Shown piece by piece: positions 2,154-30,407 of a stretch of DNA of 32,000 nt (the first letter of the stretch is position 1; each line of letters begins with the position of its first letter). The notes beneath the pieces are model-generated. The model was not told the DNA's origin, ran no database searches, and was given only the letters and a program-made list of their open reading frames with translations. A program made the translations under genes and the position numbers. The stretch covers positions 43,775 through 75,774 of the forward strand of contig CANMZP010000007.1 of NCBI GenBank assembly GCA_947502355.1, in the 5' to 3' direction. The DNA is from an uncultured Thalassotalea sp. Its GTDB lineage: Bacteria; Pseudomonadota; Gammaproteobacteria; Enterobacterales; Alteromonadaceae.

Positions 2154-3092
2154 TTACTTTTGAAGTTCTTTAATAAAATCCAATAGCAATTTCTCTTTTT
2201 CTTCAGTCAACGACTTAGAGGTAAACTTCAGAGCTAAAGAACCATTGGCTGCCTTTGTAGCCTTGATGCCTTTAACTTCCTTTAAATCGTCCCACATTGA
2301 AGGTTTTGGTGGCTGTTTTCTTTTGGCCTTCTTGCCCTGGAGTAAACCTAAAATTTCAGATTCCAACTTCACCGCTTTAGTCCTTACAGTTTCCAAAGTA
2401 TCGTCTGAATCAACATCAAATTTGGATACTGTACTTATCGCCTTCAAAAGCTTATCTTCATCCTCTTTCTTAGCTTTTATGGCGTCTCGCAAAAAGGTGT
2501 AGCTAATACATGTCAAAGAAGGGAACAAATCAAACAATGAATCTGGCAATTTAGTGAAATTCATAACTTCTGAGGCTTGGCCAGTAGAAATTTCAAATGC
2601 TTCACTGATATCATCCAAAGTTACCTTGTCTTCAGAAGCTTTGCGGTAAGCAATAAGGCTGAAACCTAAATCCACTTTGGTTGGTTTAGAATATTCATCA
2701 GAACGCTTTGCTAGTTTCTTCTTTTCCTCTTCGGTTAAGCCCTCATACAAATGGATGTGGAACTCGCCATCCTTAAGCATGGAAACACAGTAACTTCTTC
2801 GCATACCAGCCAAGATATAAATAATATCTCCATCTTTATAACCAATGGCCGGTACGGAGTTTTTCTTAGCAGACTTTATTTCTGGAAAGATATCCAAAAC
2901 AGAGGCTAACGATAAGTGTTCAGCACTTCGCGTATTATATGGACTCTTTTTTGTTTGATCGTTAATTTCACTGCTTTTAATCACATGAGCAGTAGCAAAT
3001 ATATCTCTGTCACCGGCAGGGGAGGGCACTTTAAACTTTTTAGTTCGTTCGGCTCTACCTCGAACTGGTGCACCAGCTTTTAATAGACTCAT
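2154..3092 (-). CDS. parB: ParB-family partition protein (plasmid/chromid type)
   Basis: 312-aa ORF beginning 2 nt after the parA stop. It has a ParB-box-like LAGMRRS (GxRR) motif and a helix-turn-helix-like segment DISEAFEISTGQASEV. Confidence 0.8.
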   Translation of the reverse strand: MSLLKAGAPVRGRAERTKKFKVPSPAGDRDIFATAHVIKSSEINDQTKKSPYNTRSAEHLSLASVLDIFPEIKSAKKNSVPAIGYKDGDIIYILAGMRRSYCVSMLKDGEFHIHLYEGLTEEEKKKLAKRSDEYSKPTKVDLGFSLIAYRKASEDKVTLDDISEAFEISTGQASEVMNFTKLPDSLFDLFPSLTCISYTFLRDAIKAKKEDEDKLLKAISTVSKFDVDSDDTLETVRTKAVKLESEILGLLQGKKAKRKQPPKPSMWDDLKEVKGIKATKAANGSLALKFTSKSLTEEKEKLLLDFIKELQK

Positions 3093-4324: not shown

Positions 4325-5572
4325 ATTCCACCTTATTATTGCTTTTAGCGTTCTCAACCAAAAATCACCAAGAGAACGATATATTCCAAATATAACACCA
4401 AAACAAGTTTTTAGGCAATAACTAAAATAAACCAAATAAAAAAATACCTACGAATAAATTTATTTCGCAATAATGGTCAATAAACATTACTCCGTAATTT
4501 TTTACCTAGATAAGGTTAGGGAGATTGTGACTTAAAAGGGAGCATATGAGCACTCTTAGTTTATGTAAAATAAGCGCGGTTTTAGACCGGTGTTAACAAC
4601 GAGAAAGCAATTGAGCCACTTACTAATAGAAAACAATATTAAGTTAATGAATCCAATGAAATAGCCTTAAAACAGCTTACAGAGACTTTACTAACTTCTT
4701 AAAATTGATAACTAACATACTAAGACTAAAACCCCTAGCTGATAATCCGAACAAAGATATTCAGCAATCAGTGAAAATTGCATATTACGACGCCAACCAG
4801 CTACCGTTTCTACACAGCGTATCGGTTACAAGTAAATACATTTAATTGGCCACAAGGGGACTAAAAGTGGTTGTAATCGAGTTAAAGCTCAATTGCTAGT
4901 AGTCAAGTGCCATGAAAAAATAGCTAACGCTCGAGTTGATTTCCAATCATAAAGCCTCTAGAGATCTCGTTGACGAAACTAATCTTGAATAGTTGAGACA
5001 TTGAAATCAGCTAATCAGATGAAAAACGTAAACTGGCCAAACAGGTAGCTGATGCCTCATGGCATAGCTTTATCGTAACCGTAGAGAATACCCCGTGAAC
5101 TGAACGAAGCAAAGTCGCGGGATAGTTTACTGTTAAGTCGGAATAAAAGCTGATAAGCACCTAGTGAAATTCGAACAGTGGTAAGCCTCCTATAAGGATT
5201 GCCATAATTGCGGTTTATAACTTATTGAAAGCCCTAATTATAATTAGTTCGCAAATGGGATTGCCCTCTTAGGGACCCTAGATATAGATCGCGACTTAAA
5301 TGCCCTTAATATCTCTGATAAAAGCATTCTTGAATTAAAAGCGGCAAGGGGGCGTATCTGCTTATGTAAGCTGTGCAATTATCGATACTATAGAGAAACG
5401 GCTAACTAAATAAGAGGCAAGTCTAGATAGGGCGATGAGAAGTCCGATGTCACCATGAATTTGACTCCAAATAGTATTTAATCAGGGGGGTAAGGCAAAA
5501 TGGCTTACCTGTAAAAGGAAAAATCAAAGAAGTGAAAGGAATGGTTTTTTCGAAAGAGTAGGGCGATTCACT

Positions 5573-5667: not shown

Positions 5668-7323
5668 TCATTTATTTTGGGCAATCATTTCTTTGATCAA
5701 AGCTTCAAATTGGTACATTGCCAAATCTTTCCTGATATTAAGGAATGTTAAATCCCTCGAAGCATCTGGATAGCATATTATGAAGTTTTCAACAGACTCT
5801 TGGGACAAGACACCATGAATTGTAGCTTGGTTAATTAACCAGGATTTATAAGCTCCTAACGTATTTCGGGTTAGAACTTCATAAAGTGGTGTTTTCACAT
5901 CATGAATATCTAATACTGCCTTCTGCGCCCAAATGCCAAATTTATTTTGCTTAGCCAGCTTTAGAAATTGAGTATCTTTCACAGCGATACCTTCATCTGT
6001 ATTTACAAACAAAGTTAATGCTTGTTCCCATCGAGCACGTTTATATGCATTGAAATACCGGTTTAATCTTCGAGCATGTTTTAGCAATAGTTCACGACGT
6101 TCCTCATTTTCTTCGTGGGATTTTTTTTGTTCCGGATCTATCTTGGATTCTTTTAGAAACTTTTTAATTAGTGATTCAATGTGCTTTGATTTTGGTGTTC
6201 GAAAGCAAGTAGCTGCATAGTTGTAAATTTTACTATTTTCTTTTGAGAAATAGCCATCTATCCACTGTTGGTAAATTGCCGTTGAGATACACAAAATTTG
6301 ATTTGTTGCTAATTGAGGCTGTTCCACAAATTTATACTGAGTCAGAAATTCATTAGCAAATTTATCTACTAGTCTAAATTGTTTAAGAATATTGAAAAGA
6401 ACATCTCCGCTATAAGAGGTTTTGGGATCAACAAAATATTGATTCCAATAATTTTTAAGAATTTGGGTCAATTGATTAGGATCTAGTGGTGAAGAATCAT
6501 CACTCTCTAACGTGCCAATAGCAATGTTAAAAGACTCTTTTTCTTCCAGAACAAACACTAACTTATCAATTCTTCTACCTTTCTTGATGGTTTCAACATC
6601 GGTAATAGAAAAATTGATGTGTGGATTATTATTTAGGGTTTCTACTGCCGGAGTTATTACACTTCTATTAAAATATCTAAAATCTGTCGCACCAGTTTTT
6701 TCGTTGATGTATTGGTCAGAAAGGTTCATAAACCTTTTAAGTTCTTCAATACCGATTATCTGAGTTCTTCCATTGGATACATAGGGTAGGCAAAGAAGGA
6801 TAAGGTTTTTGGCAGCGTTTGCACCTTTATCGCCAGATAATGATGTAAACATATTAAGTTCTATACGATATTTTTCTTCTAATGGCGTATTTTGTAAGAC
6901 CTCAATCAGCTCTTTTAAGATCCGATACTCCAAAGCAACAACATTACTCTCATCGTCATGAGTAACTTTAGTAGGGCCAAGTGCTTGGAAACTTTCTTGA
7001 ACTGTTTGTTTACTGTTTAGGATGTACTCATTTTTAGTGATAATTGTGGTTTGTAATTCAAGTAATTTTTCTTCAAGTCTTGAATATGACCATCGAGTAC
7101 CTAAGGATCGCCAGATTTCACCAATAGGTATTTCCGTGTTATTAACCGGATATTTCTTACTTTCAGAGTCAGAAAGTAATGCTGCCCAAATCTTAAATGA
7201 GGGAAGGGACATTTTTTGGTACATCTCTAATATTTGTCTAGGCGCAGTAAAAAAGCCTTCATCAATTAGGGCCGTACCTTGTTTTTCATCTGTTAAGTTT
7301 AATGATAATCCGTTATTGTTCAT
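5668..7323 (-). CDS. putative replication initiator (Rep) of the iteron origin
   Basis: 551-aa ORF directly abutting the iteron field, with inverted iteron units in its promoter and parAB on its other side. I recognised no family motif, so the call rests on context. Confidence 0.6.
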   Translation of the reverse strand: MNNNGLSLNLTDEKQGTALIDEGFFTAPRQILEMYQKMSLPSFKIWAALLSDSESKKYPVNNTEIPIGEIWRSLGTRWSYSRLEEKLLELQTTIITKNEYILNSKQTVQESFQALGPTKVTHDDESNVVALEYRILKELIEVLQNTPLEEKYRIELNMFTSLSGDKGANAAKNLILLCLPYVSNGRTQIIGIEELKRFMNLSDQYINEKTGATDFRYFNRSVITPAVETLNNNPHINFSITDVETIKKGRRIDKLVFVLEEKESFNIAIGTLESDDSSPLDPNQLTQILKNYWNQYFVDPKTSYSGDVLFNILKQFRLVDKFANEFLTQYKFVEQPQLATNQILCISTAIYQQWIDGYFSKENSKIYNYAATCFRTPKSKHIESLIKKFLKESKIDPEQKKSHEENEERRELLLKHARRLNRYFNAYKRARWEQALTLFVNTDEGIAVKDTQFLKLAKQNKFGIWAQKAVLDIHDVKTPLYEVLTRNTLGAYKSWLINQATIHGVLSQESVENFIICYPDASRDLTFLNIRKDLAMYQFEALIKEMIAQNK

Positions 7324-7358: not shown

Positions 7359-7483
7359 AACCTGTAAAATTCGTGATTTAAAAGTCACAATTCGATGTTA
7401 TGCTGTAAATCGAAAAGGATCAACAAAGATCTGACTATTTCTAAAAATACCTGTAAAACCCATTGGGGTGTTCATCACATTTG
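7359..7483 (-). repeat. two iteron units in inverted orientation in the rep promoter region (likely autoregulatory operator)
   Basis: AACCTGTAAAAttcgtgatttaaaaGTCACAATT (7359-7392) and ACCTGTAAAAcccattggggtgttcATCACATTT (about 7449-7483). These are reverse complements of the AATGTGA...TTTTACAGGTT unit. Confidence 0.5.
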
Positions 7484-7626
7484 GTTTTCACTTAAATACA
7501 TGCTTGTTTATATATAGTAATAAAGAATAAGAGATCTCTTTCTCTTAACTTTCTTAAGAAAGAAGAGGCATTACAACTACTCTACAAGCCATTAAAAACA
7601 AGGGTTTCATTTTTTTTTCAAGTTTA

Positions 7627-7828
7627 AATGTGATCAGCCATCCAGAAAACAACCTGTAAAACCCTCTTAATGTGATCAATCCCCCAAAAATGTCGGTTTA
7701 ATGTGATCATTCTCCCAGTGGATAAACCTGTTTTACCCGTGGGGGGCGGATCACAATTAACTGGAGCATTGATCACATTAAAATTGAAGTCTTTTTAATG
7801 TGATCAGGGCCCCAATCTTATGTGATCA
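7627..7828. repeat. cluster of seven GATC-bearing (T/A)ATGTGATCA repeats, five direct and two inverted
   Basis: Direct copies at 7627-7636, 7669-7678, 7700-7709, 7797-7806 and 7819-7828. Inverted copies at 7748-7758 and 7770-7780. Each contains a Dam site (GATC). Confidence 0.75.
7717..7725 (-). promoter_or_regulatory. DnaA-box-like 9-mer
   Basis: agtggataa on the + strand equals TTATCCACT on the - strand, an 8/9 match to TTATCCACA. It lies inside the GATC repeat cluster. Confidence 0.35.
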
Positions 7829-7973
7829 ATCCCCCAACGGGTAAAAATAGGGGTTTTACAGCTATATGTGACTTTCGCCCCAGTGATGAACCTGTAATTT
7901 TTATATCGAACCAATTTAGCGGGGACCCCAAAACTATAGCTTTTAAAGAGCTAAAGCCTATTTTTACTACCTA

Positions 7974-8368
7974 AATGTGATCTACTATCCACTATTTTTT
8001 CAGATTAAGGCTTTGCTCATTGGGTCTTAAGACATTTTAAGTCATCGTAACTGTGATGTTTTATCAACAAAAACTACAGGTTTTGATCTTTATGTGACCT
8101 AGCATTCCTTATTTTTACAGGTTTACGGGGTAAATGTGATAATCAATCCAGTGATTTTTCAAGTTTCACTTTAAATGTGACAAACAGGACAGCGATTTTA
8201 CAGTTTAGACAATTTACGTGACTTGCTATCCATGATTTTTACAGGTTTGGCCTTAATGTGAATTATCATCCAGTTATTTTACAGGTTCACAGGTTAATTG
8301 TGATAATGAATTTAGTATTTTTACAGGTTAGTCCCTTAATGTGATCTTCAATCCAGTATTTTTACAAT
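7974..8368 (+). repeat. array of nine composite iterons, eight of them phased at 40-42 bp
   Basis: Unit consensus is AATGTGAt-n5-ATCCAGT-a-TTTTTACAGGTT. TGTGA cores start at 7976, 8052, 8093, 8135, 8176, 8217, 8257, 8299 and 8340, giving spacings of 76, 41, 42, 41, 41, 40, 42 and 41 bp. Confidence 0.8.
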
Positions 8369-8462
8369 TTCCAATATGGATTTTATACCATATGAAAAAT
8401 GGAAGTGGTTATAGCGGTTTAGGCCTGTGAGTTGACCTTAACAGACCAAGTAAAAAACAGAA

Positions 8463-9395
8463 TTAATTAACCAGATAAAGATTAAGCCTTTCAATAATCA
8501 ACCTTCGGTTACTTCTTTTCTTGCCAGTACCGGTTCTTTGGTCAGTTAACCGGTAATTGTCCAGAGGCTTTATCGACGGATTGTTATCACCAGAAGATAA
8601 AATGATAAATGGGGAAGGGCATGGGATTTGTTTGCCATCGACGATGGCAACTGGTTGAACTTTGGTTTCACGAATAAAACGTAGATTTTCCTTGTTGGAA
8701 ACTGATTTTAAATCGATTATTTCAGCATCCACCATTTTCATCCAATCGCTGTCATTTGCTTTCCAGGCTTTTGACTTTTCCAGTTTAGTTTCTAGCTGGG
8801 GAACGTTCACTTTATTAATGAGTTCTTTATTGGCCCAGATGAAGTTTATTCGTTCTGGGTTTTGAAAGTAATTAATCCGGCGATAAACGCTAAGAGTGAT
8901 CAAGCCTTTGTAATGGCGCTCATGCAAAATATCAAAACGCTGGTCTTTGTCTTTGATTTCGAGTGCTGCAGATTTGAACCTTGCTTTTAGGTCATTTACC
9001 TTTTCCAACTTCGAAATTAAAGCTTGGATTTCAGACCCGGACATCTTAACTTGGATGTAGCCTGGTTTCCTTTGGGCAGCCTTCGTACTGTATTTTATAT
9101 CACCAATTCCAAAATATTCGAAGACTTCTTTGATGATAGTTTCTTTAGCCTGGTCCGAATCATCCAAATCAACATCAATGCTTTCTGGCCTGTCATTTTC
9201 TGCTTCTTTGGTAATGAGCCCTAAATCATACAATTGAAAAGAGCTGTCCGGGGCTTCACGCAATATAGCTTTTACTTCATTGCCGGTTTGAATCAGTTCA
9301 TCAAAAATTATGTCCAGTTCAGATTTAATATCAGTGATAGAGCATGCATCAGCTTTCATGGTTTGATCATTGTTGGTATTGTTCTCAGATTTCAC
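8463..9395 (-). CDS. tus: DNA replication terminus site-binding protein Tus homologue
   Basis: 310 aa, against 309 aa for E. coli Tus. Collinear matches by eye: HERHYKGLITLSVYRR vs HRHLPGLITLNAYRT, INFIWANKELINK vs LRFGWANKHIIKN, KVQPVAIV vs KVQPIARV, and C-terminus RRLIIERLNLYLVN vs LRLIIPRLHLYVAD. GTG start at 9395 with AAGGTGA 6 nt upstream. Confidence 0.85.
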   Translation of the reverse strand: MKSENNTNNDQTMKADACSITDIKSELDIIFDELIQTGNEVKAILREAPDSSFQLYDLGLITKEAENDRPESIDVDLDDSDQAKETIIKEVFEYFGIGDIKYSTKAAQRKPGYIQVKMSGSEIQALISKLEKVNDLKARFKSAALEIKDKDQRFDILHERHYKGLITLSVYRRINYFQNPERINFIWANKELINKVNVPQLETKLEKSKAWKANDSDWMKMVDAEIIDLKSVSNKENLRFIRETKVQPVAIVDGKQIPCPSPFIILSSGDNNPSIKPLDNYRLTDQRTGTGKKRSNRRLIIERLNLYLVN

Positions 9396-9493
9396 GTAGC
9401 GTCACCTTATATAGTCAGTTATTGGCTGTTACCCGATGAAAACACATCCTGGCAACAGCTGGTGGTACAGTACAGTCCTAAATTTATCACTCA

Positions 9494-9510
9494 TTAATTA
9501 CAACATACTC
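9494..9510 (-). promoter_or_regulatory. Ter-like Tus-binding site (proximal, in the tus upstream region)
   Basis: The - strand reads GAGTATGTTGTAATTAA, a 15/16 match to the E. coli TerB core AGTATGTTGTAACTAA, including G6 and GTTGTAA. It lies ~100 bp upstream of tus and in the same orientation as tus, as TerB does in E. coli. Confidence 0.7.
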
Positions 9511-9672
9511 AATACAAAGGAACAAAATCTAGTGTCGCACCCAACCTTTCCTTGCTAAACAACCGCTCGTGAGAGCGGAAAGTTCGCCGTTTTCGCGCGC
9601 GTTCGTTCGTTGAATTGGAAGATATACTCTCATGCGCCGAAGGCGCACATAGCTTTTCAATCATAAAACACA

Positions 9673-9689
9673 GAGTATGTTGTAATTAA
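9673..9689 (+). promoter_or_regulatory. Ter-like Tus-binding site (distal, opposite polarity)
   Basis: GAGTATGTTGTAATTAA on the + strand, the exact reverse complement of 9494-9510. Confidence 0.7.
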
Positions 9690-9709
9690 ACATATGGTGA
9701 TGATATAGT

Positions 9710-10174
9710 TTGTTTGAAAAATTAACAAGTACCTTTTTATTTACTTTATTTTCTGAGATACCAACTATGGCTAAAAAAATAATTAACGCTTCTGACATCG
9801 GCAAAACCGCCTATTGTCCCAAGGCTCATTACCTTTCTACCAAGCATCGTCATGGTTGGGATACCCAACAACGGCTTAATACCGGCAATTACAAGCATAA
9901 CCAAATGACTAAACGTGCTATGACCAAGCAAGATAAGCGCTGCTTTGTTGCCTCCTATGCGCTTGGTGAAAATCACCTGGTCACTCAAGATTTGCGTAAT
10001 TTTCGTGACGAAAAACTACTTACAACGGGATGGGGTAGAGCGTTTGTGGCAGCTTATTACTTTTTATCACCCAAGTTTATTTGGCTGTTTGGAAACTCAA
10101 AAGCAATGAAAGCGTTTTCCCAGGGCTTTGTGCAGAAGTTCCATGCCTGGTTCGCTGCTAACTCTAATAAATAG
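9710..10174 (+). CDS. small protein with a Cas4-type N-terminal Cys motif and a C-terminal hydrophobic CF(V/I)A...YYxxSP segment
   Basis: SDIGKTAYCPKAHYL resembles the Cas4/RecB-family N-terminal YCPRK motif. RCFVASYALGE...LRNFRDEKLL...GRAFVAAYYFLSP resembles a recurrent membrane-hairpin motif. The start is ambiguous: TTG at 9710 (GGTGA 9 nt upstream) or ATG at 9767. It ends in TAG, in frame with the next ORF. Confidence 0.55.
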   Translation: MFEKLTSTFLFTLFSEIPTMAKKIINASDIGKTAYCPKAHYLSTKHRHGWDTQQRLNTGNYKHNQMTKRAMTKQDKRCFVASYALGENHLVTQDLRNFRDEKLLTTGWGRAFVAAYYFLSPKFIWLFGNSKAMKAFSQGFVQKFHAWFAANSNK

Positions 10175-10186: not shown

Positions 10187-10705
10187 ATGATTTACATTAT
10201 TTTATTGTTTGTTGGTTACTACTTCTTTGTTTACCTTGGTGAAAAGAAGCGCTTAGAACGTGAAAAAGGGTTAGATAATCCGTTTTCAATGTATGGCCAG
10301 CTGGTGTACGCCGATGGCCAGAGCAAAAAAAGCAGAAGTTTTGTGAATAAACGCTTCGGCCTATGTGCCAAGCCGGACTTTATATTCAGAAACGAGCATG
10401 GTACTTATACACTAATCGAATATAAGTCCCGCCAAGGTAAAGTTTATCAATCAGATATTCAACAAACCATCGCAAGCGTTATGGCTGCCAGGACAAAATT
10501 TAATATCACCGAAGCATACGTTCACACCGATAATTTTAGAATGGCAATCGACGCTGGTAAATCAAATGCCGAGTTGTATTCTGTAATTGAACGAAATGCT
10601 GATTTAACCAGAGATATAAAATCAGGGCGCCAGGTTAATATTACCAATGGCTCGCAATACAAGTGCCCAACCTGTTCTATGAAGCACAAGTGTGATAAAT
10701 GGTAG
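10187..10705 (+). CDS. PD-(D/E)XK nuclease of the Cas4/RecB family with an N-terminal transmembrane helix
   Basis: N-terminal hydrophobic MIYIILLFVGYYFFVYL. Nuclease core CAKPDF...LIEYKSR (D...ExK). C-terminal CPTCSMKHKC is the C-x2-C-x5-C Fe-S triad typical of Cas4/AddB. Confidence 0.7.
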   Translation: MIYIILLFVGYYFFVYLGEKKRLEREKGLDNPFSMYGQLVYADGQSKKSRSFVNKRFGLCAKPDFIFRNEHGTYTLIEYKSRQGKVYQSDIQQTIASVMAARTKFNITEAYVHTDNFRMAIDAGKSNAELYSVIERNADLTRDIKSGRQVNITNGSQYKCPTCSMKHKCDKW

Positions 10706-12993: not shown

Positions 12994-14568
12994 ATGAATG
13001 CTTTATCCATACCAGCTTGCAATCTAACTGCTTCAAATACTTTCTTTGAACCGATTCAAACCAATGTAATCGAACAACTACTTTGGCAGTACCGAGGTAC
13101 GCTTAAACACATTCAAAAAGTGGGTGAAATTGCTACAGATAACAGCAATCAAAACGCGATAAATTACTTCATCGAGGGTAATAATGATCGATACACACGC
13201 TATACAGGTACAGTTAAAGATCTATTTAATGTTACCAAGGCGGTTAAAGCGTTAAATGCTGATTATTGGCGCAAAGCCCTCGATGCCACTGGCGTACTGG
13301 AACATATGTGTCAAACCCGCAAGAGTGAGTGGACTACTTCTATTCAAGAAATGAAAACGCCTGATTTCTGTGAAGAATCTGTATTTGCAACGCTCAAAGA
13401 ATTGCTTCTGGCTCGTGAAAATCACCTGTCCGAATTTGTAGCCAGTGTTTTTAATTCCTTGTCTAGCGAACATATTACAAATAGCCCTGCCGGTTTCGGA
13501 AAAAAGATGATCACTTGGTATGCTGATAGCTACGGCTTTGTTAGTCATACAAAAGCGGGTTATCTCAATGATTTGAGATACTTGATTGCAAAATTGATGA
13601 ACAGAGAGTTACCGAAGAACCACAGCTCATATCAAATTTTAAATAGCCTTAAAGACCAAACTGGCGAATGGTTTGAAATTGATGGTGGTGCTATTCGTAT
13701 TAAGCTGTTCAAAAAAGGTACTTTGCATATTGAGGTTAGTCAGGAAATTGCTTGGCGCTTGAATGAAATCTTAGCTATCAACTTGCCAAATGCGATCCCT
13801 GCGGAATTCAGACGCAAGCCGAAAAAAACCAAAATTGAAGATTTAAAGTTTACGCTGACACAAAACTTTATCCCGACTGAAGTGCTAAACCTTTTAGGGT
13901 CAAGCAATTTAGCCAGAAACGGCCTAGAAATGTGGATCGACTATCAAGCCGATAAATATATAAAAGCCGAATTAACAAAGGTTTTAAGTGCTATTGGCGG
14001 GGTTGTAGGTACTACCGGCAAAGTGAATTTTGATTATGATGCTCATGCTGTAATTAATTATATTTTGAGAGTTGGCCACTTACCGGATCACAAATCACAT
14101 CAGTATTACCCTACAAGCGAAAAGGTTGCCCGATTTGTCGTGGATAATGCTCAAATTGAGGAAAACCATCGTTGTTTAGAGCCGAGTGCCGGCACAGCAA
14201 ACATTGCACAGTTTATGCCTAGTCATACTCATTGTGTTGAAGTAAGTGAATTGCATTGCAAGGTACTTGAAAGTAAGGGCTTTACTGTTGTGAATGAAGA
14301 CTTCTTAAAATTCAGCCAAAACACAACTAAGCGGTATGACAGAATTTGTCTAAACCCACCATACTCGCTTCATAGGTTCAAAACCCATACCGATGCAGCT
14401 ATCCGCTTGCTCGATACAGATGGCATGTTGGTGGCTGTACTTCCATTAAGTGCTAAGAAAAAGTTTGAAACGAGCATCGATTATAACGTTGAGTTTCTAA
14501 ATGACTTTGAAAATGAATTCGCAAACCCCCAAATTGCGGTAACGGTGATGCGCGTCACTAAAAAATAA
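12994..14568 (+). CDS. orphan N6-adenine DNA methyltransferase (C-terminal gamma-type MTase domain; resembles plasmid/ICE DUF4942-type MTases)
   Basis: 524 aa. Motif I LEPSAGTANIA precedes motif IV CLNPPYSL (NPPY). AAGGTGA lies 5 nt upstream of the ATG. The N-terminal ~380 aa are unassigned. There is no adjacent restriction endonuclease or specificity gene. Confidence 0.8.
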   Translation: MNALSIPACNLTASNTFFEPIQTNVIEQLLWQYRGTLKHIQKVGEIATDNSNQNAINYFIEGNNDRYTRYTGTVKDLFNVTKAVKALNADYWRKALDATGVLEHMCQTRKSEWTTSIQEMKTPDFCEESVFATLKELLLARENHLSEFVASVFNSLSSEHITNSPAGFGKKMITWYADSYGFVSHTKAGYLNDLRYLIAKLMNRELPKNHSSYQILNSLKDQTGEWFEIDGGAIRIKLFKKGTLHIEVSQEIAWRLNEILAINLPNAIPAEFRRKPKKTKIEDLKFTLTQNFIPTEVLNLLGSSNLARNGLEMWIDYQADKYIKAELTKVLSAIGGVVGTTGKVNFDYDAHAVINYILRVGHLPDHKSHQYYPTSEKVARFVVDNAQIEENHRCLEPSAGTANIAQFMPSHTHCVEVSELHCKVLESKGFTVVNEDFLKFSQNTTKRYDRICLNPPYSLHRFKTHTDAAIRLLDTDGMLVAVLPLSAKKKFETSIDYNVEFLNDFENEFANPQIAVTVMRVTKK

Positions 14569-17849: not shown

Positions 17850-19013
17850 CTACCCCCTATAAGCGCCTAAGTTTGCCTTATCAAGCATCCTTTCAAAAAG
17901 GCTTTTCTTAAATAGCGATTTGGATTTTTTAATAACTAAAAGTAACTTTATAAATTCAGTAGAATCAGCAAAAAAGTTAGGATATGCAGCCTTAATTTCG
18001 TCTAGATGCTCGGTGTAGACCAATGCGACCACCATATTCCTTCCTCGGTTTACCGTTTCTTTTTCAGCTTCAGTGTATGCTGCTTCAGCATTTTTAGAAT
18101 CGTCTTCGGCAAAAATTCGGTATTGTAAGGTTGATTTTTTTATATCGATGTTTATAAGAACGTAGCCACTTAAATCATCATCAATTTCCGAAAGGGCTTG
18201 GTCAACCATTTTAAGGGATGATGCAAAAGCATTTAGCTTTTCTAAAACCCCTAATTCATCTTCCAAATCAATGACTGTTAAGGCTTCATCTGCTAACCCC
18301 CTGTCCTTAACTAACTTGGTCATGTACTCTTTCAATTGATAAGAATTATTTTGTCTTCCGAAAAGGTGAACTTTATCCATCACAGAAAATTGCCCGGAGA
18401 TTTTATAGAAAAACTCGCTCCATAACTTCTCACCTTGGTTAGTTTTTAATGATTGTTTTGTAAAAAGATCAACAATTTCAAGAGCTGTAGCCCAGTAGTG
18501 CTGGATGTTCGTTCTTATTTGAACCTCAATAGTGTGTAGTTTGCCATTTTCATCTGGAAAGTGGCCCATAATATGATGACTTCTATAGCCATCTCTTTTA
18601 GGTCTTTCTAAATAATTCTTCTGCCTAATTTGTCCTTTGGCGCACTTAAATTCAGGCCTTTTTCTGAGGGCCCTAACGATTTGAGTAACTTTTTTCTCGT
18701 TTTCAACAATAACTCTGCAGCCTCCAATATCCTGCATATTCTTTAGGCTCATTTTGGGAAAACGACGCAGCTTTAATACAATAGATGGGTATCTCTTTAA
18801 TCTTTTAGCGTACAGTGCATTAGCTTCTATCGGGGTTACAACTTCTTTGACAACCTTTAAGCCATTTTCTAAAGGGGTTGTATGGCAAGCCCTCCAATAT
18901 GAAAGGGTATCCATAGTCTTGTTGAACTTTTCCTTGTTCTTTAATGTTTCCTCGCATAAAAAGTTTTGACCTGCTTTAGTTATTTGTTTTCCTGAGTAGC
19001 TAACATCTGCCAT
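17850..19013 (-). CDS. RelA/SpoT-domain nucleotide pyrophosphokinase (small alarmone synthetase-like) with a ~190-aa C-terminal extension
   Basis: Synthetase motifs are intact: AKRLKRYPSIVLKLRR, MQDIGGCRVIV, DGYRSHHIM and IEVQIRTNIQHYWATALE. There is no HD hydrolase, TGS or ACT domain. I prefer the ATG at 19013 (GGAAGA 9 nt upstream) over the track TTG at 19022. Confidence 0.85.
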   Translation of the reverse strand: MADVSYSGKQITKAGQNFLCEETLKNKEKFNKTMDTLSYWRACHTTPLENGLKVVKEVVTPIEANALYAKRLKRYPSIVLKLRRFPKMSLKNMQDIGGCRVIVENEKKVTQIVRALRKRPEFKCAKGQIRQKNYLERPKRDGYRSHHIMGHFPDENGKLHTIEVQIRTNIQHYWATALEIVDLFTKQSLKTNQGEKLWSEFFYKISGQFSVMDKVHLFGRQNNSYQLKEYMTKLVKDRGLADEALTVIDLEDELGVLEKLNAFASSLKMVDQALSEIDDDLSGYVLINIDIKKSTLQYRIFAEDDSKNAEAAYTEAEKETVNRGRNMVVALVYTEHLDEIKAAYPNFFADSTEFIKLLLVIKKSKSLFKKSLFERMLDKANLGAYRG

Positions 19014-19153
19014 GAAGTACAATCTTCCAATTTCAATATGAAATATAAATACTATCGGATTTTTGGTGATTGTTATAGAGCGTATGGAACTGTTTTAAAA
19101 ATAAAAAAGGGAACATCAAGCCCCCTTAAACATCAAATGTTGAGAGTTTCTTA

Positions 19154-21373: not shown

Positions 21374-23125
21374 CAGACTGTGTGAATATTGATTGTGAAT
21401 TAGAACGGTATATCGCTTTTCTATAGGGTGAGCGTAGCGAACCCGAAATTTTGAAATTTCCAGATATCGCTTTATTCCTATGCTTTTAAGATGATTTTTG
21501 GGGCTGCTATAGCTTTTTCATTCTGTTTTACGCAAAAATAATGGCCGTTAGGCCATTATTGCCCTCATTAACGAACCTGCACCAACTATGTTTATCATTC
21601 TCTGGATATTGTAGGCGAGAACACTCAAATCCATTTCTGTGCCAACATTTTTGAAGCCTTTAGTTAAGAAATGAGTCGCTCCCATCCTCATTTTTATCGT
21701 ACCAAATGGGTGCTCAACCGTTTGCTTTCTTATCACCGTTGTATCCGGTGCTTTTTCGTACCTCTCAAGCATGTCATCAATTTCATTTTCATGAACCCAG
21801 CGCTTCATTTTTCTAGGGGCTGATTTGGATGTCGTGCATTTAGCTCTAATTGAACATAACCGACAAGCGGCATGATCTCGATATACTTTGAGCTCTAAGC
21901 CTGCTTCATGCACAGTCGATGCAAAAGGCAATTCATTTCCTGCTGGGCAAGTATATAAATCTTTTTCCCTATCGTATTTAAATACAGAGCGATTGAAGAT
22001 ACCTTTCTTATCCGAGCCAGATGTATCTCCCTTAGGAACCAGTGCTTCGGCGCCGGTATCTTGACAGCCTTTGATATCTGCTCTGCTGAAGTAACCTTTA
22101 TCAGCTATCACGGTTATGCCTTTCTGTCCTAACGCGCTCTGTGCTTGTTTTGTCATTTCTGTTAACTGCCCACAGTCAGGAGTGTTTGTCACGTCATGGG
22201 CGAGGATTAAATGATTTTTTGTATCAACGACACTCTGTACGTTGTAACACACTTGCCGCTCATAGTTGCGGGTCTTCATTAGTCTGGAATCAGGGTCGGT
22301 TTCTGAGATTTGTTTATCTGGATGAGCTTCTACTTTTTCTTTAATTTCATTGAATTCGGCGAGCTTACTTTTTAGATAAGAAATTTTCTGCTCTATGCTT
22401 TCTTTTGATTCACTACCTTCATCGTTATCAGCAGAATCAAGTTTATCCAGATAGCGTTGGATATGCTTTTCAACGCGTTCAATATGGAATTTTAATTTGC
22501 CTGGCGTGTAGTTTTTCGACTTGTTATTCACGGCCTTAAACTTGCTGCCATCTACAGCAACAACAGCGTCTTTGAACATGTTTAATTGTCGGCAAATATC
22601 AATGAAGGTACGGCAAACGTTTTTTATGCCTTTGCTATTGTCTTTACGGAAGTCGGCTATGGTTTTAAAGTCGGGTGCCAACCGACGAGTCAGCCACATG
22701 AGTTCGACGTTTCGTTGCGCTTCGCGCTCTAAACGACGGCTAGATTGGATACGGTTAAGGTAGCCATAGAGATAAAGCTTGAGCATGGTTGCAGGGTCAT
22801 ATCCTGGTCGACCGACATGCTTTGGTCTTGCACGTTGAAATCCCATCTCTTCAAGATTAAGTTCATCTACAAAAACATCGAGTACACGAACTGTATTTTC
22901 TTCGGAGATAAAATCATCAAGCACTTCTGGAAACATCGTTGCTTGAGTTCGACTTCTCCCTTTAATATAGCCAGCCATATCAGCGCCTTATCTGTATTCT
23001 TATAATATCTAGAATATCAAAAGCTAGAACTACTGGCTAATAAATGAGCAGTCTTAACTAGATTAATTGATCATAAGATCAGGATTAATATGCCCGATTG
23101 GAATTAATAGTTTTCACACAGTCTG
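21374..23125 (-). mobile_element. IS1182-family (IS5-related) insertion sequence, 1752 bp, apparently intact
   Basis: Terminal inverted repeats CAGACTGTGTGAA (21374-21386) and TTCACACAGTCTG (23113-23125), with further imperfect matching inward. Flanked by a direct TGCC at 21370-21373 and 23126-23129 (4-bp target duplication). Contains a single full-length transposase ORF. Confidence 0.8.
21548..22978 (-). CDS. IS1182-family DDE transposase
   Basis: 476 aa. The N-terminal segment MFPEVLDDFISEENTVRVLDVFVDELNL...GRPGYDPATMLKLYLYGYLNRIQSSRRLEREAQRNVELMWL is characteristic of IS1182/IS5-type transposases. Confidence 0.9.
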   Translation of the reverse strand: MAGYIKGRSRTQATMFPEVLDDFISEENTVRVLDVFVDELNLEEMGFQRARPKHVGRPGYDPATMLKLYLYGYLNRIQSSRRLEREAQRNVELMWLTRRLAPDFKTIADFRKDNSKGIKNVCRTFIDICRQLNMFKDAVVAVDGSKFKAVNNKSKNYTPGKLKFHIERVEKHIQRYLDKLDSADNDEGSESKESIEQKISYLKSKLAEFNEIKEKVEAHPDKQISETDPDSRLMKTRNYERQVCYNVQSVVDTKNHLILAHDVTNTPDCGQLTEMTKQAQSALGQKGITVIADKGYFSRADIKGCQDTGAEALVPKGDTSGSDKKGIFNRSVFKYDREKDLYTCPAGNELPFASTVHEAGLELKVYRDHAACRLCSIRAKCTTSKSAPRKMKRWVHENEIDDMLERYEKAPDTTVIRKQTVEHPFGTIKMRMGATHFLTKGFKNVGTEMDLSVLAYNIQRMINIVGAGSLMRAIMA

Positions 23126-23217
23126 TGCCATTAACAGACCTTCATGTGACTTTGTAATCTGGGAGCAAATCGTATGAATAGCCCCACAGAAAAATAAAAT
23201 GGGGCTAGATAGAGTCG

Positions 23218-26200
23218 TTATGACGTAAATTCTTTAATTTTTCCTTTAGAAAAGAACTTATATAGGCTTGGTACAACAAATAACGTGAGTAACGTCGCTG
23301 TAATTAACCCTCCAACAATAACGCTAGCAAGTGGTCTTTGAATTTCAGAGCCAACACCATTTGACATTAACATAGGTATTAGGCCTAACGCTGAAGTAAT
23401 AGCAGTCATAAGCACGGGGCGCAATCTTGAGGTAGCACCATCAAATATTGCTTCAACGGTTTCAAGTCCATCTTTGATTCGTTGATTAATGCTTTCCACC
23501 ATTACTACACCATTAAGCACCGCCACCCCAAACAAGGTAATAAAACCAACAGAGCTTGGAACTGATAGATACTGACTTGAAAGGTATAGTGAAAATACAC
23601 CGCCAATAACAGCTAATGGAACATTAAGTAAGATCAGCATCGCTTGTCCTACTGAACCAAATGCAAAATAAAGGAGTAATGCGATTAAAGCCAGTGATAA
23701 CGGTACGACGATAGAAAGACGCTGCTGTGCTCGTTGCTGATTTTCGAATTGCCCACCAATCGACACTGAATAACCTGCGGGCAATTCTACATCAGAGGCT
23801 ATCTTTGCTTGAATATCATCAACAACACTTCCCATGTCTCGGCCTTGGACATTGGCTTGAATAACCACCCTACGCTGAACATCATCACGTCTAACCTGTG
23901 GAGGGCCAGACTCAAAAGAAACAGAAGCTACATCGCCAATGCGTACCCAAGCTCCTGTCGGAGATTGCAGTCTAATATCGGCAATTGCTTCACTATTGGC
24001 TATAAATTCTTCACCTAGGCGCACGTATATATCATAACGTTCGTTACCATTAATAATTTGTCCAGCCTCAACACCACCAATACCGTCTTGAACCACTTCC
24101 ATGATATCACCAACAGATAAACCGTATCGAGAAAGCTCAAGCCTATTAGGAGCGATAACAAGTTGTGCTTCACCTGCAATCTGCTCAAGTGCAACGTCCT
24201 TTGCACCATCAATTGACTTAATCGCAGTTTCAATTTCTCGTCCTTTATTTGCTAGCACCTGTAAGTCAGAGCCAAATAATTTAATCGCAAGTTGTGCTTT
24301 GACTCCTGATAACAACTCATCAACGCGAGTAGCTATTGGCTGAGAGAAATTTAGTAAAAGACCCGGAAACTCCTCTAATGAGCGCTCCATTTCATCTTGC
24401 AGCTCATAACGATTAGAGGCGCTTGTCCATTCTGAAACAGGTTTAAGGCCAATGTAGATTTCAATGTTGTTCACTGGCTCTGGGTCGCCGCCAATTTCTG
24501 CTCGACCAATTCGGCTTAACGCGTAAGTCACTTCAGGAAATGCCATCAACTTTTCTTCCAATATTGGAGCAACAGATAGCGCTGTTTCCAAACTTGAAGA
24601 AGGGGCTAGTGTCACTCTGAGGTTAATCGTTCCTTCTTCTAACTCTGGCACAAACTCTGTTCCAATTTGTGGAATGATTGCCGCTGCCGAAGCGACGAGA
24701 GCTAATGACACAAAAACAACAAACTTGGTTCGCTTTAATGCAATTCTCAACAACTTTCGATACAAAATGTCGATAGGCTTTAAAATCAAACTTTCCCTTT
24801 CTTTCACCCCTCGCTTAAACATAAAAGTGGCAAGCGCAGGGACAATAAACAAAGCAACGACAATAGCTGACACCACAGCCAGCATAATGCTGACAGCCAT
24901 TGGCTGAAATAGCTTTGCTTCAACACCTTCGAAACTAAACAATGGTGTAAAAACAACGAGAATGATTGACGCTGCGAAAAAGATCGGGCGAGCAACTTCT
25001 TTACCTGCCAATTTTAACTTTTGTTTAGTTTCAATACTTGCATCAGCGCTCTCGCTTTCTAGTTGTCTGTTTAGGTGTTTAAACATGTTTTCAACCATAA
25101 CAACTGAACCATCGACTAACATGCCAATAGCCACCGCGATACCGCCGAGCGACATCAAGTTGGCTGAAATACCTAACCAAGCCATCACCATTAATGCAAT
25201 TCCAATGGAAATTGGGATTGAGATAAGCACTAGAAATGTTGCTCTTAAATTCATTAAAAATAGAGCAAGTACAATAGTTATAAAAATAAAAGCCAAAGTA
25301 AGGGCTTCAACAACGGTCGCCACGGCTTTTTCAATTAAGTCAGCTTGGTCATAAAAAGGCTCAAATCGCACACCTTCTGGTAATGCCTGATTGATAAGCT
25401 TTGTTCTAGCATTAATACCATCTATCGTCGCTTTGGTATTCGAACCCATGCGCTTTAATACGATGCCAGAAACCACTTCACCTAAGTTCTCAACACTGCC
25501 ATTGTCCGTTTTGCGGGTCATAGTGACAGCGCCTTGTCTGATCTCAGCACCAAACTCTACGTTCGCGACATCAGAAACAGTAACGACTACACCATTAAGT
25601 GTTTTCACAGGCACCTGCTGAATGTTTTTTATACCTTTTTCACCACTTTCGAACCAACCAGTACCACGAATAACGAGCTGTTCTTGGCCGCGATTCATGT
25701 ACCAGCCACCTACATTGGCGTTGTTATTTTCAAGCGCGGATACCACGTCCGCTTGGGTTAACTCGTAGGATAATAATTTTGAAGGATCAACATTAACTTG
25801 GTATTGGCGAACGTTACCACCGAATGACAGCACATCTGTTACGCCGTCTACAGGCATTATTAGCAGTTTAATGATCCAGTCATTCAGACTTCTAAGCGCC
25901 ATCGAATCATATTTGCTTGTGTCATCTGATATCAGCAAATATTGAAATACTTGCCCTAAGCCGGAAGTGTTTGGTCCCATCTCTGGTGTCCCAACTCCAG
26001 CAGGTATAAGCTCTTTCGCAGCCTGTAAGCGTTCAAATACCAATTGCCTTGCAAAATATATATCCGTACCTTCTTTAAAGACTACAGTGACACCCGACAA
26101 ACCTGTTTTTGAAATAGAGCGCACTTGTTCTACATCTGGTAATGCGTACATCACAGCTTCAATTGGATATGTGATAAGTTGCTCTACTTCTTCTGCGGCT

Positions 26201-26367
26201 AAACCCGGCGCTTCGGTATTAACAGCAACTTGTACGTTTGTAACGTCTGGAAACGCATCCAAATTCAACTTGGGTATGGTGATAACAGCACTTGCGATTA
26301 ATACAATTAGCGTTATTAGTACAAGCAGTCTGTTGTTAATAGACCAATCAATAATTCGATTAAACAT
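23218..26367 (-). CDS. czcA: heavy-metal efflux RND pump, CzcA/CusA family
   Basis: 1049 aa. The N-terminus MFNRIIDWSINNRLLVL...LDAFPDVTNVQVAVNTEAPGLAAEEVEQLITYPIE is typical of HME-RND. AAGGAGG lies 5 nt upstream of the ATG. Confidence 0.92.
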   Translation of the reverse strand: MFNRIIDWSINNRLLVLITLIVLIASAVITIPKLNLDAFPDVTNVQVAVNTEAPGLAAEEVEQLITYPIEAVMYALPDVEQVRSISKTGLSGVTVVFKEGTDIYFARQLVFERLQAAKELIPAGVGTPEMGPNTSGLGQVFQYLLISDDTSKYDSMALRSLNDWIIKLLIMPVDGVTDVLSFGGNVRQYQVNVDPSKLLSYELTQADVVSALENNNANVGGWYMNRGQEQLVIRGTGWFESGEKGIKNIQQVPVKTLNGVVVTVSDVANVEFGAEIRQGAVTMTRKTDNGSVENLGEVVSGIVLKRMGSNTKATIDGINARTKLINQALPEGVRFEPFYDQADLIEKAVATVVEALTLAFIFITIVLALFLMNLRATFLVLISIPISIGIALMVMAWLGISANLMSLGGIAVAIGMLVDGSVVMVENMFKHLNRQLESESADASIETKQKLKLAGKEVARPIFFAASIILVVFTPLFSFEGVEAKLFQPMAVSIMLAVVSAIVVALFIVPALATFMFKRGVKERESLILKPIDILYRKLLRIALKRTKFVVFVSLALVASAAAIIPQIGTEFVPELEEGTINLRVTLAPSSSLETALSVAPILEEKLMAFPEVTYALSRIGRAEIGGDPEPVNNIEIYIGLKPVSEWTSASNRYELQDEMERSLEEFPGLLLNFSQPIATRVDELLSGVKAQLAIKLFGSDLQVLANKGREIETAIKSIDGAKDVALEQIAGEAQLVIAPNRLELSRYGLSVGDIMEVVQDGIGGVEAGQIINGNERYDIYVRLGEEFIANSEAIADIRLQSPTGAWVRIGDVASVSFESGPPQVRRDDVQRRVVIQANVQGRDMGSVVDDIQAKIASDVELPAGYSVSIGGQFENQQRAQQRLSIVVPLSLALIALLLYFAFGSVGQAMLILLNVPLAVIGGVFSLYLSSQYLSVPSSVGFITLFGVAVLNGVVMVESINQRIKDGLETVEAIFDGATSRLRPVLMTAITSALGLIPMLMSNGVGSEIQRPLASVIVGGLITATLLTLFVVPSLYKFFSKGKIKEFTS

Positions 26368-26378
26368 GCTTGGCCTCC

Positions 26379-27605
26379 TTAATGATTGTGCGGGTCGAAG
26401 CCGCCCTTAGCTATCTCAGAGGCGACAAAAAAAGCACCACGTGTAACGACTTTTGTTCCAGATTCAAGGCCGAAAATTTCTCGATATTCGCCAAATGACC
26501 GACCTCTTGTTACTTCTACTGCTTTAAACTCATTTGTGTGGTCTTCAATAAATACAGTCCAATCACCGTCACTGCTTCTAATCAACGCTTCTTCTGGTAC
26601 TGCAATGACTTCATCGCTTGATTCGAACTGCAAATAGACTTTCACAAACATACCTGAATGAAGCTTATGTCCAGTATTAGTAACCGACAGTCTTACTGTT
26701 CGGGTTCGTGTAATTGGATCAATAGTGTGAGCTTCTTGAATGACGTTGGCTTGGTATTTAATACCATTTAAATCAATTAAGGCAGGACTGCCTAAGGCTA
26801 AATTTAACTCTTTATTAGGAGGAACATTTGCTTCTACCCAAAGGTCTGTCTCATCGGCAAGTAACATGATGGTTTCACCCGCTTCAATGCGCTGACCTTG
26901 CATGAAGTCATCTTGCAATACAACGCCTTCCCGCTCAGCTATAAGCACGTACTGCCCAAACGTAGCGCTATCTTGTTGGGCTATTTTGTCAATTGCTTGT
27001 TTTGTTAAACCAAAAGCTACTAATTTGCCATAAACACCTTTATAGATGTTTTCTGCTTCAACAAGCGTACGTTCGCTTATGTTGTTACTTCCTAGCTTTT
27101 TCGCTCGCTTCCAATTAGAAGAGGCTATTAAAAAGTCCGCTTGAGTTTGAGCCATCGTTTCACTGAACAAGGTAACTAATTTTTGTCCAGACTTTACGTG
27201 GTCTCCTAAGCTCGCAAGGCGATTAATAACCACTGAATCTGTGCGAGGTGATACCAGATAGCTCTTATAGCCATTGGCTTTCACTTCTCCGGGAGCGTAT
27301 ACCGTATTTTGGTATTTCTTCGGAAACAACTCCTCAATTTTTATGCCTGCTAATTCAACCTTTTCAGCACTTAAAGAAATCCCCTCAACATGTTCCTCTT
27401 CTTTAACGAGACTCTCGGTTTTATGTTCTTCATCCTCTGCATGGTCATGTTCATCAGTAGCTTTCTTGATAGACTTTTCATGTTCATGCGAATGTTCATC
27501 GTGTTGTGTGTTATTTTGACTTTCATTAGCCAGTGCTGTGTTTATTGAAAACACAGCAAGAATGATTACTAACGCTACGCCAGTAGTTCGAAAAATATTA
27601 TTCAT
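26379..27605 (-). CDS. czcB: RND periplasmic adaptor (membrane fusion protein), CzcB-like, with a His-rich N-terminal region
   Basis: 408 aa with a signal/anchor sequence and then HDEHSHEHEKSIKKATDEHDHAEDEEH. It has MFP-type beta-barrel/lipoyl sequence and lies directly upstream of czcA. Confidence 0.85.
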   Translation of the reverse strand: MNNIFRTTGVALVIILAVFSINTALANESQNNTQHDEHSHEHEKSIKKATDEHDHAEDEEHKTESLVKEEEHVEGISLSAEKVELAGIKIEELFPKKYQNTVYAPGEVKANGYKSYLVSPRTDSVVINRLASLGDHVKSGQKLVTLFSETMAQTQADFLIASSNWKRAKKLGSNNISERTLVEAENIYKGVYGKLVAFGLTKQAIDKIAQQDSATFGQYVLIAEREGVVLQDDFMQGQRIEAGETIMLLADETDLWVEANVPPNKELNLALGSPALIDLNGIKYQANVIQEAHTIDPITRTRTVRLSVTNTGHKLHSGMFVKVYLQFESSDEVIAVPEEALIRSSDGDWTVFIEDHTNEFKAVEVTRGRSFGEYREIFGLESGTKVVTRGAFFVASEIAKGGFDPHNH

Positions 27606-27671
27606 AATGACTCTTAACTTTTATTAAACCAAATTGTGTTTGCGCAAAAGCGCACTGTATGGAGTAAAAAG

Positions 27672-28013: not shown

Positions 28014-28098
28014 TATTCTATTCTCTTCATTAGACGTTGGTAATATAACAAATTTCTGAGTACAAATCTAAGCCAGTTAATAAATGTAAATGTAAATG

Positions 28099-29707: not shown

Positions 29708-29719
29708 TATCAATCTCCT

Positions 29720-30376: not shown

Positions 30377-30407
30377 ATTTCAAACTCCTATTAGCTTGTA
30401 TACTTAA

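Follow-up and report, generated by a model that had tools for sequence, protein, structure and literature searches.

A plasmid-encoded Tus and an inverted pair of Ter sites form a predicted replication fork trap beside an iteron-type origin in an uncultured Thalassotalea

Introduction

Tus-Ter fork traps have been described on plasmids as well as on chromosomes. On plasmid R1, the terRL/terRR pair is reported to enforce one-way replication, and in the absence of Tus multimers and rolling circles appear (PMC10331603). In the present study we analyse a stretch of 32,000 nucleotides from an uncultured Thalassotalea sp. (contig CANMZP010000007.1 of assembly GCA_947502355.1, forward-strand positions 43,775 to 75,774; hereafter the window, with position 1 as its first letter), in which a tus gene and two inverted Ter-like sites are found next to a plasmid-type origin of replication.

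The chromosomal traps have been linked to plasmids before. According to a proposal of Galli et al. (2019), E. coli acquired its Tus-Ter system by domestication from plasmids (PMC6549158), and Toft et al. (2021) proposed an ancestral trap with two Ter sites only, one of them beside tus (PMC8707476). Such a type I trap is found in Edwardsiella, which has two Ter sites only, the tus-vicinal one being innermost (Toft et al. 2021, PMC8707476). Neither of the two studies showed a plasmid with both tus and a defined Ter pair (PMC6549158, PMC8707476). In Pseudoalteromonas, tus always adjoins ori2 (Galli et al., PMC6549158), and chromosome 2 replicates one-way as judged by sequencing depth, with no Ter homologues reported near the expected terminus (Xie et al., PMC7858055); a 2023 review puts a question mark on the Ter site of this chromosome (PMC10331603).

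Results and discussion

We propose, and consider it probable, that plasmid-encoded Tus together with the inverted Ter pair constitutes a fork trap of about 200 bp beside an iteron origin, rendering replication effectively one-way. The tus gene is a 310-aa open reading frame (ORF) at 8463-9395 on the minus strand. The Pfam profile Ter/Tus (PF05472) matches it over profile positions 4-296 of 296 with E=1.2e-51 and 176 bits against a cut-off of 22, and the E. coli Tus chains 1ECR and 4XR0 match it at E=4e-23 in a PDB sequence comparison. An AlphaFold model of the window Tus built from a 36-sequence alignment (predicted local distance difference test, pLDDT, 92.8; predicted template modelling score, pTM, 0.85) superimposes on 1ECR_A in Foldseek with E=3e-25, template modelling (TM) scores of 0.83/0.85 and a root mean square deviation of 2.8 Å over 309 columns. 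E. coli Tus-DNA complexes are the sole structural neighbours of the model in the PDB (TM 0.83-0.85), and the search returned no non-Tus fold at E<1. We conclude that this ORF encodes a genuine Tus with the Tus fold. A first-pass annotation, made from the sequence alone, had claimed homology to Tus along the full length of the ORF, and both the profile match and the structural match bear this out.

The window Tus is about 27% identical to that of E. coli. The cytosine pocket of the Tus-Ter lock is said to consist of I79, F140, H144 and G149, in work of Mulcair et al. from 2006. In a residue alignment of E. coli Tus, window Tus, its relatives and one Pseudoalteromonas Tus, the E. coli residues E49, F140 and H144 are invariant, and G149 is retained in the window Tus. 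As the first ~19 residues are of low confidence in the model and the homologues begin ~19 residues further in, the true start of tus may be the ATG at 9359 instead of the GTG at 9395.

Upstream of tus lie two copies of a 17-mer. The proximal Ter, at 9494-9510 on the minus strand, reads TTAATTACAACATACTC on the plus strand and GAGTATGTTGTAATTAA on the tus coding strand, and is located 99 nt upstream of the GTG start; the distal Ter, at 9673-9689 on the plus strand, reads GAGTATGTTGTAATTAA. A repeat finder agrees with the earlier reading by eye that the two form an exact 17-nt inverted repeat, 100% complementary, with arms 162 nt apart. Across the 32 kb, the 15-nt core GTATGTTGTAATTAA is matched without mismatch at these two sites only; when up to three mismatches are allowed the total rises to six, which does not exceed chance (3.5 expected), the four others carrying three mismatches each. 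Comparing the window Ter (AGTATGTTGTAATTAA) with the TerB core (AGTATGTTGTAACTAA) shows 15 of 16 positions to be equal, the sole difference being C17 to T. We took as the mark of an E. coli-type Ter the conserved core GTTGTAACTA, in which G6 precedes G10 by four bases, and both G6 and GTTGTAA are present in the window sites, as the first-pass annotation had noted along with the 15/16 match. Direct reading of the tus region of E. coli K-12 places TerB (AATAAGTATGTTGTAACTAAAGT) 11 bp ahead of the ATG, on the coding strand of tus; the proximal Ter shares its orientation relative to tus, in keeping with the annotated TerB-like placement.

The presumed origin lies on the other side of tus. An initiator of 551 aa is encoded at 5668-7323 on the minus strand and matches the Rep3_C (WH2) domain only (PF21205, E=2.5e-11), the N-terminal WH1 domain being unmatched. 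Next to it, the region 7359-8370 contains repeat families of 21-39 nt with ~41/82-bp spacing in both orientations, which we take as a plasmid-type origin; an initiator beside three directly repeated iteron families is the arrangement of a Rep3-type iteron plasmid origin. The tus gene separates the iterons from the two Ter sites, the proximal one being 1.1 kb and the distal one 1.3 kb away from them. A tblastn search of PLSDB with the 551-aa initiator found no relative, and a homologous Rep of 552 aa adjoins tus in two related loci described below (L002/L015). In the middle of the origin, at 7731-7845, there is a 53-nt imperfect inverted repeat, 72% complementary and made of iteron-like units, which gave spurious weak matches to miRNA families in Rfam.

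The orientation of the two sites predicts which forks they would stop. TerB arrests clockwise forks, that is, forks moving in the written direction of the TerB sequence. The Tus-Ter lock arises when unwinding from the G6 side frees C6, and the non-permissive face is the G6 side (PMC8707476). On both grounds the G6 side is the blocking face, in agreement with the polarity rule that the first-pass annotation had given. As the proximal site is oriented like TerB and the distal site reads the same on the plus strand, both G6 faces look into the 162-bp interval: that of the proximal Ter faces rightward, to 9511, and that of the distal Ter leftward, to 9672. The two are thus predicted to be oppositely oriented polar barriers with their non-permissive faces toward each other, and forks could therefore enter the interval and not leave it.

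In the mechanism that we propose, a Tus-Ter complex would block a helicase nearing its G6 side. The origin fork that runs through tus would pass the proximal Ter permissively and halt at the distal Ter (9673-9689) after about 1.3 kb, whereas the other fork would copy the remaining replicon, enter past the distal Ter, and either fuse with the stalled fork or halt at the proximal Ter (9494-9510). This assignment of the origin-side fork to one site and the right-hand fork to the other is the one made earlier, and it follows from the polarity rule. Replication would in effect proceed one way and end at a fixed terminus next to the origin, the trap keeping the returning fork out of already replicated DNA. 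In addition, Tus at the proximal site probably represses its own gene, by analogy with TerB in E. coli. We infer binding and polar fork arrest at the Ter sites, the direction of the long-arm fork and the autoregulation of tus from the sequence.

An exhaustive HMMER search returned 148 Tus relatives, the eight closest being 32-43% identical to the window Tus, and contigs were compared for seven of the closest Tus clusters. The same Ter-spacer-Ter-tus cassette is present in five further lineages (L002/L003/L015, L004/L005, L006/L007, L009 and L013), the Tus proteins of which are 34-42% identical. Read in the orientation of tus, the layout of all six lineages is an inverted Ter, a spacer of 153-188 nt and a direct Ter. 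Across the family the Ter core is invariant as GTATG(T/G)TGTAATTAA, with the variant GTATGTTGTAATTAA in four lineages and GTATGGTGTAATTAA in two. The change of T11 to G in the latter two affects both sites, and both members of every pair share the same T/G variant, as would be expected if every pair were recognised by the Tus of its own locus. Between the end of the 15-nt core and the tus start codon there are 45 nt in L002, 12 nt in L004 and 50 nt in L009. An origin on the tus side of the pair is seen elsewhere as well: L002 has 41-bp iterons and the 552-aa Rep 2.8 kb from the pair, and L013 has 42-bp repeats at 2.1 kb.

Beyond these lineages, the more distant clusters L010-L012 and L014 yielded no such Ter pair, and the sequence of L008 ends at tus. 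In L008 the gene adjoining tus (907-2925) encodes an initiator with an RctB_central domain, of the Vibrio chromosome 2 type and not of the Rep3 type; the tus cassette therefore travels with different replication modules. PLSDB yielded no close relative, whether queried with 5.2 kb in megablast or with the Rep protein in tblastn, and neither did scans of genome contigs and viral contigs; the sole metagenome contig match, L015, duplicates L002, a word-indexed protein search returned only the query, and it was the exhaustive HMMER search alone that brought up relatives. Family members occur in metagenome assemblies and in a few assemblies from NCBI. The plasmid family appears to be undescribed, with marine and other metagenomes as its main source. 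Other plasmid-borne tus genes (in Vibrio, Aeromonas, Photobacterium, Alteromonas, Glaciecola, Shewanella and Klebsiella) have no E. coli-like Ter core near tus, and upstream of them no obvious inverted 13-mers were found bar scattered single weak pairs. A Morganella 'plasmid' match was set aside as a chromosomal-type tus-fumC-manA segment with an ordinary TerB-like site.

The comparison among lineages also bears on whether fork arrest is the function of the pair at all. If Tus were mainly a repressor, the two sites would be operators of divergent promoters, one for tus and the other for an operon of two genes to the right of the distal Ter (encoding a small protein and a PD-(D/E)XK-type protein), with arrest being incidental. 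A sigma-70-like promoter (TTGTAA-18-TATAGT, extended TG) does begin inside the distal Ter and points toward the gene at 9767, three loci (the window, L004 and L009) have a divergent gene pair adjoining the distal Ter, and tus of E. coli is autoregulated through TerB (PMC10331603). Nevertheless, in L002, L006 and L013 no divergent gene starts at the distal Ter; it is instead abutted by the terminator of an incoming gene, and the inverted geometry and spacing are kept regardless. Promoter scans of the six loci found none at a conserved position, the cytosine-lock residues are conserved although a plain repressor would not need them, and R100 keeps the pair without any tus gene. We consider a role as operators only to be unlikely. 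As the genes that flank the distal Ter differ, the cassette behaves as a unit independent of neighbouring promoters. The strong intrinsic terminators of the incoming genes abut the distal Ter from outside (L002 7625-7675, L006 ~4640-4680, L013 ~3005-3045), which fits a shielding of the permissive face from incoming transcription.

The 162-bp spacer at 9511-9672 contains an element of two hairpins and short boxes. On the plus strand, hairpin 1 (9633-9647) reads TGCGCC-GAA-GGCGCA, containing the mini-hairpin motif CCGAAGG, and hairpin 2 (9563-9578) reads CCGCTC-GTGA-GAGCGG. The distal Ter begins 25 nt past hairpin 1, its G6 27 nt past, and in all six lineages hairpin 1 sits 23-28 nt from the distal Ter core. 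Hairpin 2 ends ~54 nt from the proximal core in five of the six, the distance being 100 nt in L004 due to an insertion. In tus sense, hairpin 2 is directly followed by a conserved box, T(T/A)GTYT(A/T/G)GCAAG, on the minus strand at 9550-9562, in which GCAAG is invariant and TnGTnT nearly so in the six lineages; just ahead of hairpin 2, again in six of six, there is a G+C box with a preceding A/T run (9590-9601; TTTTCGCGCGCG on the plus strand, CGCGCSC-AAAAGG in tus sense).

The stems differ by lineage and their pairing is perfect, 67 of 67 base pairs being Watson-Crick. Counted over sequence pairs, compensatory versus one-sided stem changes number 18 versus 0 for hairpin 1 and 42 versus 0 for hairpin 2. 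With position disregarded, 5-25% of shuffled spacers per locus contain at least two such hairpins. As the folding energies of the whole spacer are unexceptional (z -0.45 to -3.0), the signal is that of two local hairpins and not of a globally folded RNA, and an Rfam search over 9400-9700 gave no match even at E up to 1. The hairpins have no convincing terminator tail in most loci. A 51-aa ORF in the spacer (9509-9664, minus strand) was rejected as coding, since the other loci have unrelated frames with lengths that differ by non-multiples of three.

Conserved ends around a variable interior are also what one would see if the 17-mers were the terminal inverted repeats of a non-autonomous element resembling a miniature inverted-repeat transposable element, their likeness to Ter being due to chance. 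Against this, each locus has one copy, always beside tus. No target-site duplication surrounds the repeats, which match the experimentally defined E. coli Tus site at 15 of 16 positions, and the covariation of the interior keeps its structure at fixed distances from the ends, in contrast to drift. We find this explanation scarcely credible.

Returning to the fork trap, the loops of the hairpins suggest a possible task for the spacer. On the plus (anti-tus) strand, hairpin 1 has the loop GAA in four lineages and AAA in two, and hairpin 2 has GAA in two, GGA in two, and GTGA and CTTG in the remaining ones. Stems of the form C-GNA-G belong to an unusually stable class of DNA 'mini-hairpins', listed in a 2026 review for the single-strand priming sites of phage G4 and RSF1010 ssiA and for the hairpin promoters of N4, the ssiA motif being CCGAAGG (PMC13037366). 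The window hairpin 1 carries this exact heptamer, and stable hairpins capped by GNA or GNNA, the feature of single-strand initiation (ssi) signals of the G4 and RSF1010 ssiA type, are found on the plus strand. At a fork halted by the distal Ter the plus strand would serve as lagging-strand template, so that the hairpins would become single-stranded immediately behind the arrested helicase. No CTG start triplet of E. coli DnaG is conserved in the spacers of the six lineages. A strand-specific role in single-stranded DNA, as a priming or restart signal, is our leading idea for the spacer, albeit a tentative one; an RNA, promoter-related or protein-binding role is possible too.

The same geometry is found in the IncFII plasmids. 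In R100 (L030, NC_002134 84000-94281), positions 6066-6235 hold Ter(-) TGTCTGAGTGTTGTAACTAAAGC and, 137 bp on, Ter(+) ATTATGAATGTTGTAACTACTTC. This pair is located downstream of repA and the DnaA box of oriR, with its blocking faces inward, and corresponds to the terRL/terRR pair described for R1 (PMC10331603). Both in R1/R100 and in the window, an inverted, inward-facing pair thus lies beside the origin on one side, with a core-to-core distance of 137 bp in R100 and 181 bp in the window. The R100 spacer includes CCGGCCC-GAA-GGGCCGG, which ends 21 nt before G6 of the origin-distal Ter, the position of hairpin 1, and both systems have in common a GC-rich hairpin with a GAA loop 21-28 nt before the blocking face of the origin-distal Ter. 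Among IncF variants (L031-L033), one has a compensatory change of G-C to C-G, one has its loop flipped to TTC and one is degraded by a mismatch and a wobble pair. At least 5000 plasmids in PLSDB carry the R100-type module.

The two systems differ in several respects. R1 and R100 use the Tus of the host, whereas the window plasmid has its own tus, located between origin and pair; the initiator is IncFII RepA in the former and of the iteron/Rep3 type in the latter; and the pair-to-origin distance is roughly 50-250 bp in R100 compared to 1.1 kb in the window. R100 lacks the second hairpin and the GCAAG box of the window family. In R1 the leading-strand start is beyond the pair, whereas the long arm in the window is suggested to leave on the origin side. 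As tus is plasmid-encoded here and R1/R100 depend on host Tus, the window system is a variant of the R1/R100-type trap and not a member of it, and in view of the shared pair, orientation and hairpin its most fitting description is an origin-proximal trap of the R1 type that brings a tus gene of its own. The first-pass annotation had likened the sites to the pair of R6K; the origin-proximal pair of R1/R100 is the closer precedent. R6K is reported, by Horiuchi and Hidaka in 1988, to have an inverted terR1/terR2 pair that uses Tus, and it resembles the window in that an inverted Ter pair forms a small plasmid terminus. This terminus is not known to lie next to a single origin, and no tus gene is known from R6K. 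That R6K has a specific replication terminus is documented (PMC10331603).

With regard to the direction of replication, the plus-strand GC skew in the window is -0.039 left of the origin and -0.049 right of the pair, with no change of sign. To obtain a replication skew term, per-gene skew was regressed on gene strand, with bootstrap confidence intervals (CI). Right of the pair this term, with the gene-strand effect removed, is -0.038 (95% CI -0.059 to -0.014), a sign that hints at copying of the right-hand region by a fork heading to the trap and not away from the origin. The skew at third codon positions was too noisy for use. In six of the six loci, 61-77% of coding bases, counted on the two sides of the cassette together, have the orientation of tus. 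Together, skew and gene orientation weakly suggest that the long-arm fork sets out from the origin in the direction opposite to the trap and comes back past the distal Ter; to the same degree they speak against bidirectional replication starting at the iterons and against a long arm running rightward. The earlier claim of one-way replication, for which a GC-skew analysis had been proposed as a check, gains from the same skew sign on both sides and from the co-orientation; the signal is weak and confounded.

A rightward long arm is what a strict R1 mechanism would require. The leading strand would start right of the distal Ter, the proximal Ter would stop the short back-fork and the distal Ter the fork that returns via rep, the origin and tus. 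The order of origin, near Ter and far Ter equals that of oriR, terRL and terRR in R100, and the leading-strand start of R1 has been placed beyond the pair (PMC10331603). Yet this mechanism predicts a positive plus-strand skew right of the pair, where -0.038 is observed, and it would leave 70-77% of genes, including rep, parA and tus, head-on to replication. In R100, the genes to either side of the pair run in the reported direction of replication. Moreover, a helicase from the origin would meet the blocking face of the distal Ter before reaching such a start site. We hold the strict R1 mechanism to be very unlikely.

The trap reading has its own difficulties. Relative to E. coli Ter, T stands in place of C at position 17, in 12 of the 12 Ter sites of the plasmid family, and to our knowledge C17 is invariant among E. 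coli Ter sites. The pocket residues I79 and, in relatives, G149 vary within the Tus family. The pair lies 1.1 kb upstream of tus in L006 and 0.44 kb in L013, and at these distances autoregulation of tus cannot be direct everywhere. In L004, no origin was found within 8 kb of the Ter pair. Regarding direction, the skew term left of the origin is ~0, as estimated from only four genes, and the skewed region on the right contains an insertion sequence (IS) and probably acquired genes. The window covers 32 kb of a replicon of ~164 kb, in which other Ter sites or a second origin are possible. Lastly, Ter binding and fork arrest are predictions from sequence.

A more far-reaching proposal, which we regard as doubtful, is that Ter-hairpins-Ter is a 'stop-and-start' module in which the hairpins prime inside the trap, that the R1/R100 hairpin is likewise functional, and that the cassette is ancestral to type I traps. 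If so, priming at the hairpins would fix the start of the long-arm leading strand, or the last Okazaki fragment, inside the trap; the hairpin before Ter in R1/R100 would be an unrecognised functional part of plasmid fork traps; and the chromosomal two-Ter (type I) traps would have arisen from a portable tus cassette by expansion of the spacer. The traps of E. coli and Edwardsiella resemble that of the window in the family and fold of Tus, the near-identical core (15/16) with G6, and a tus-adjacent Ter in TerB orientation. In contrast, chromosomal traps span 18-270+ kb, lie opposite oriC and enclose dif, whereas that of the window spans 0.2 kb beside a plasmid origin; E. coli differs further in a Tus that is 27% identical and in having C17 where the window has T.

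The cassette can also be compared to chromosome 2 of Pseudoalteromonas. We find a Ter-like 14-mer, AGTA(A/T)GATGTGTTC, in three chromosome 2 records (L022 5738-5965, L026 4140-4994 and L027 2638-5971), where 0.01 matches per locus are expected by chance. It shares GTATG-TGT with Ter and equals 8 of the 13 E. coli Ter core positions. Two of the three records have one 14-mer immediately ahead of the tus start, oriented like TerB, and two further copies, inverted, 0.1-0.9 kb upstream of it; P. piscicida has several inverted copies and one direct copy beyond tus. Like L002, this chromosome has a plasmid-type origin and the order sites-tus-repA-ori-parAB; unlike the window, it has a divergent motif, at least two inverted copies and an interval without GC hairpins. 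At the level of motif and layout, these candidate sites support the view that inverted Tus sites next to a plasmid-type origin are a general feature; they would also link the inverted-site layout to a replicon in which one-way replication has been measured.

The literature already contains tus genes on plasmids, the hypothesis of a plasmid origin, the ancestral trap with two Ter sites and the precedent of R1. In the literature searched we found no account of a family of plasmids having both a tus gene of their own and a defined, E. coli-like Ter pair adjoining the origin, of a conserved hairpin element inside such pairs or of its role, or of candidate Ter-like sites on Pseudoalteromonas chromosome 2. 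In six lineages tus is accompanied by an inward-facing Ter pair with a core close to that of E. coli at ~27% protein identity, the origin lying 1-3 kb off on the tus side wherever it was located. The cassette of the window resembles the proposed plasmid ancestor of the E. coli termination system, and the hypotheses of domestication and of origin-proximal one-way replication become directly testable with a small, orthogonal Tus-Ter pair. In addition, it points to where the Ter sites of Pseudoalteromonas chromosome 2 may be sought, and it brings to light that plasmid traps, that of R100 among them, contain a conserved hairpin element.

To the right of the distal Ter and transcribed away from it lies the small-protein gene (9767-10174, plus strand), whose product has the N-terminal sequence ASDIGKTxYCPxxHYLS and a hydrophobic tail and is found in the same position in four related loci at 36-54% identity. 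It is followed by the gene of the PD-(D/E)XK-type protein (10187-10705, plus strand; 172 aa, AKPDFI...EYKSR...YKCxxCxMxxxC), which has 41-49% identity to its counterparts in five related loci; its L004/L005 orthologues match PDDEXK_1 weakly. The pair looks like a split nuclease of the Cas4/RecB type. All five related lineages have the nuclease gene, four have the small-protein gene as well, and in four of them the two genes are located just upstream of the distal Ter.

Elsewhere in the window there are three possible defence or stress genes, at 297-1469 (SIR2_2/AbiH-like), 12994-14568 (DUF4942 with a methyltransferase-like C-terminus) and 17850-19022 (RelA_SpoT domain, like a small alarmone synthetase). 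The region 21548-31447 contains an IS with a DDE transposase, followed by an efflux pump of the resistance-nodulation-division family (AcrB-type with a HlyD-type adaptor) and a cation-diffusion-facilitator transporter. This block has a stronger negative GC skew and a higher G+C content than the rest of the window, and is probably an acquired metal or drug efflux block.

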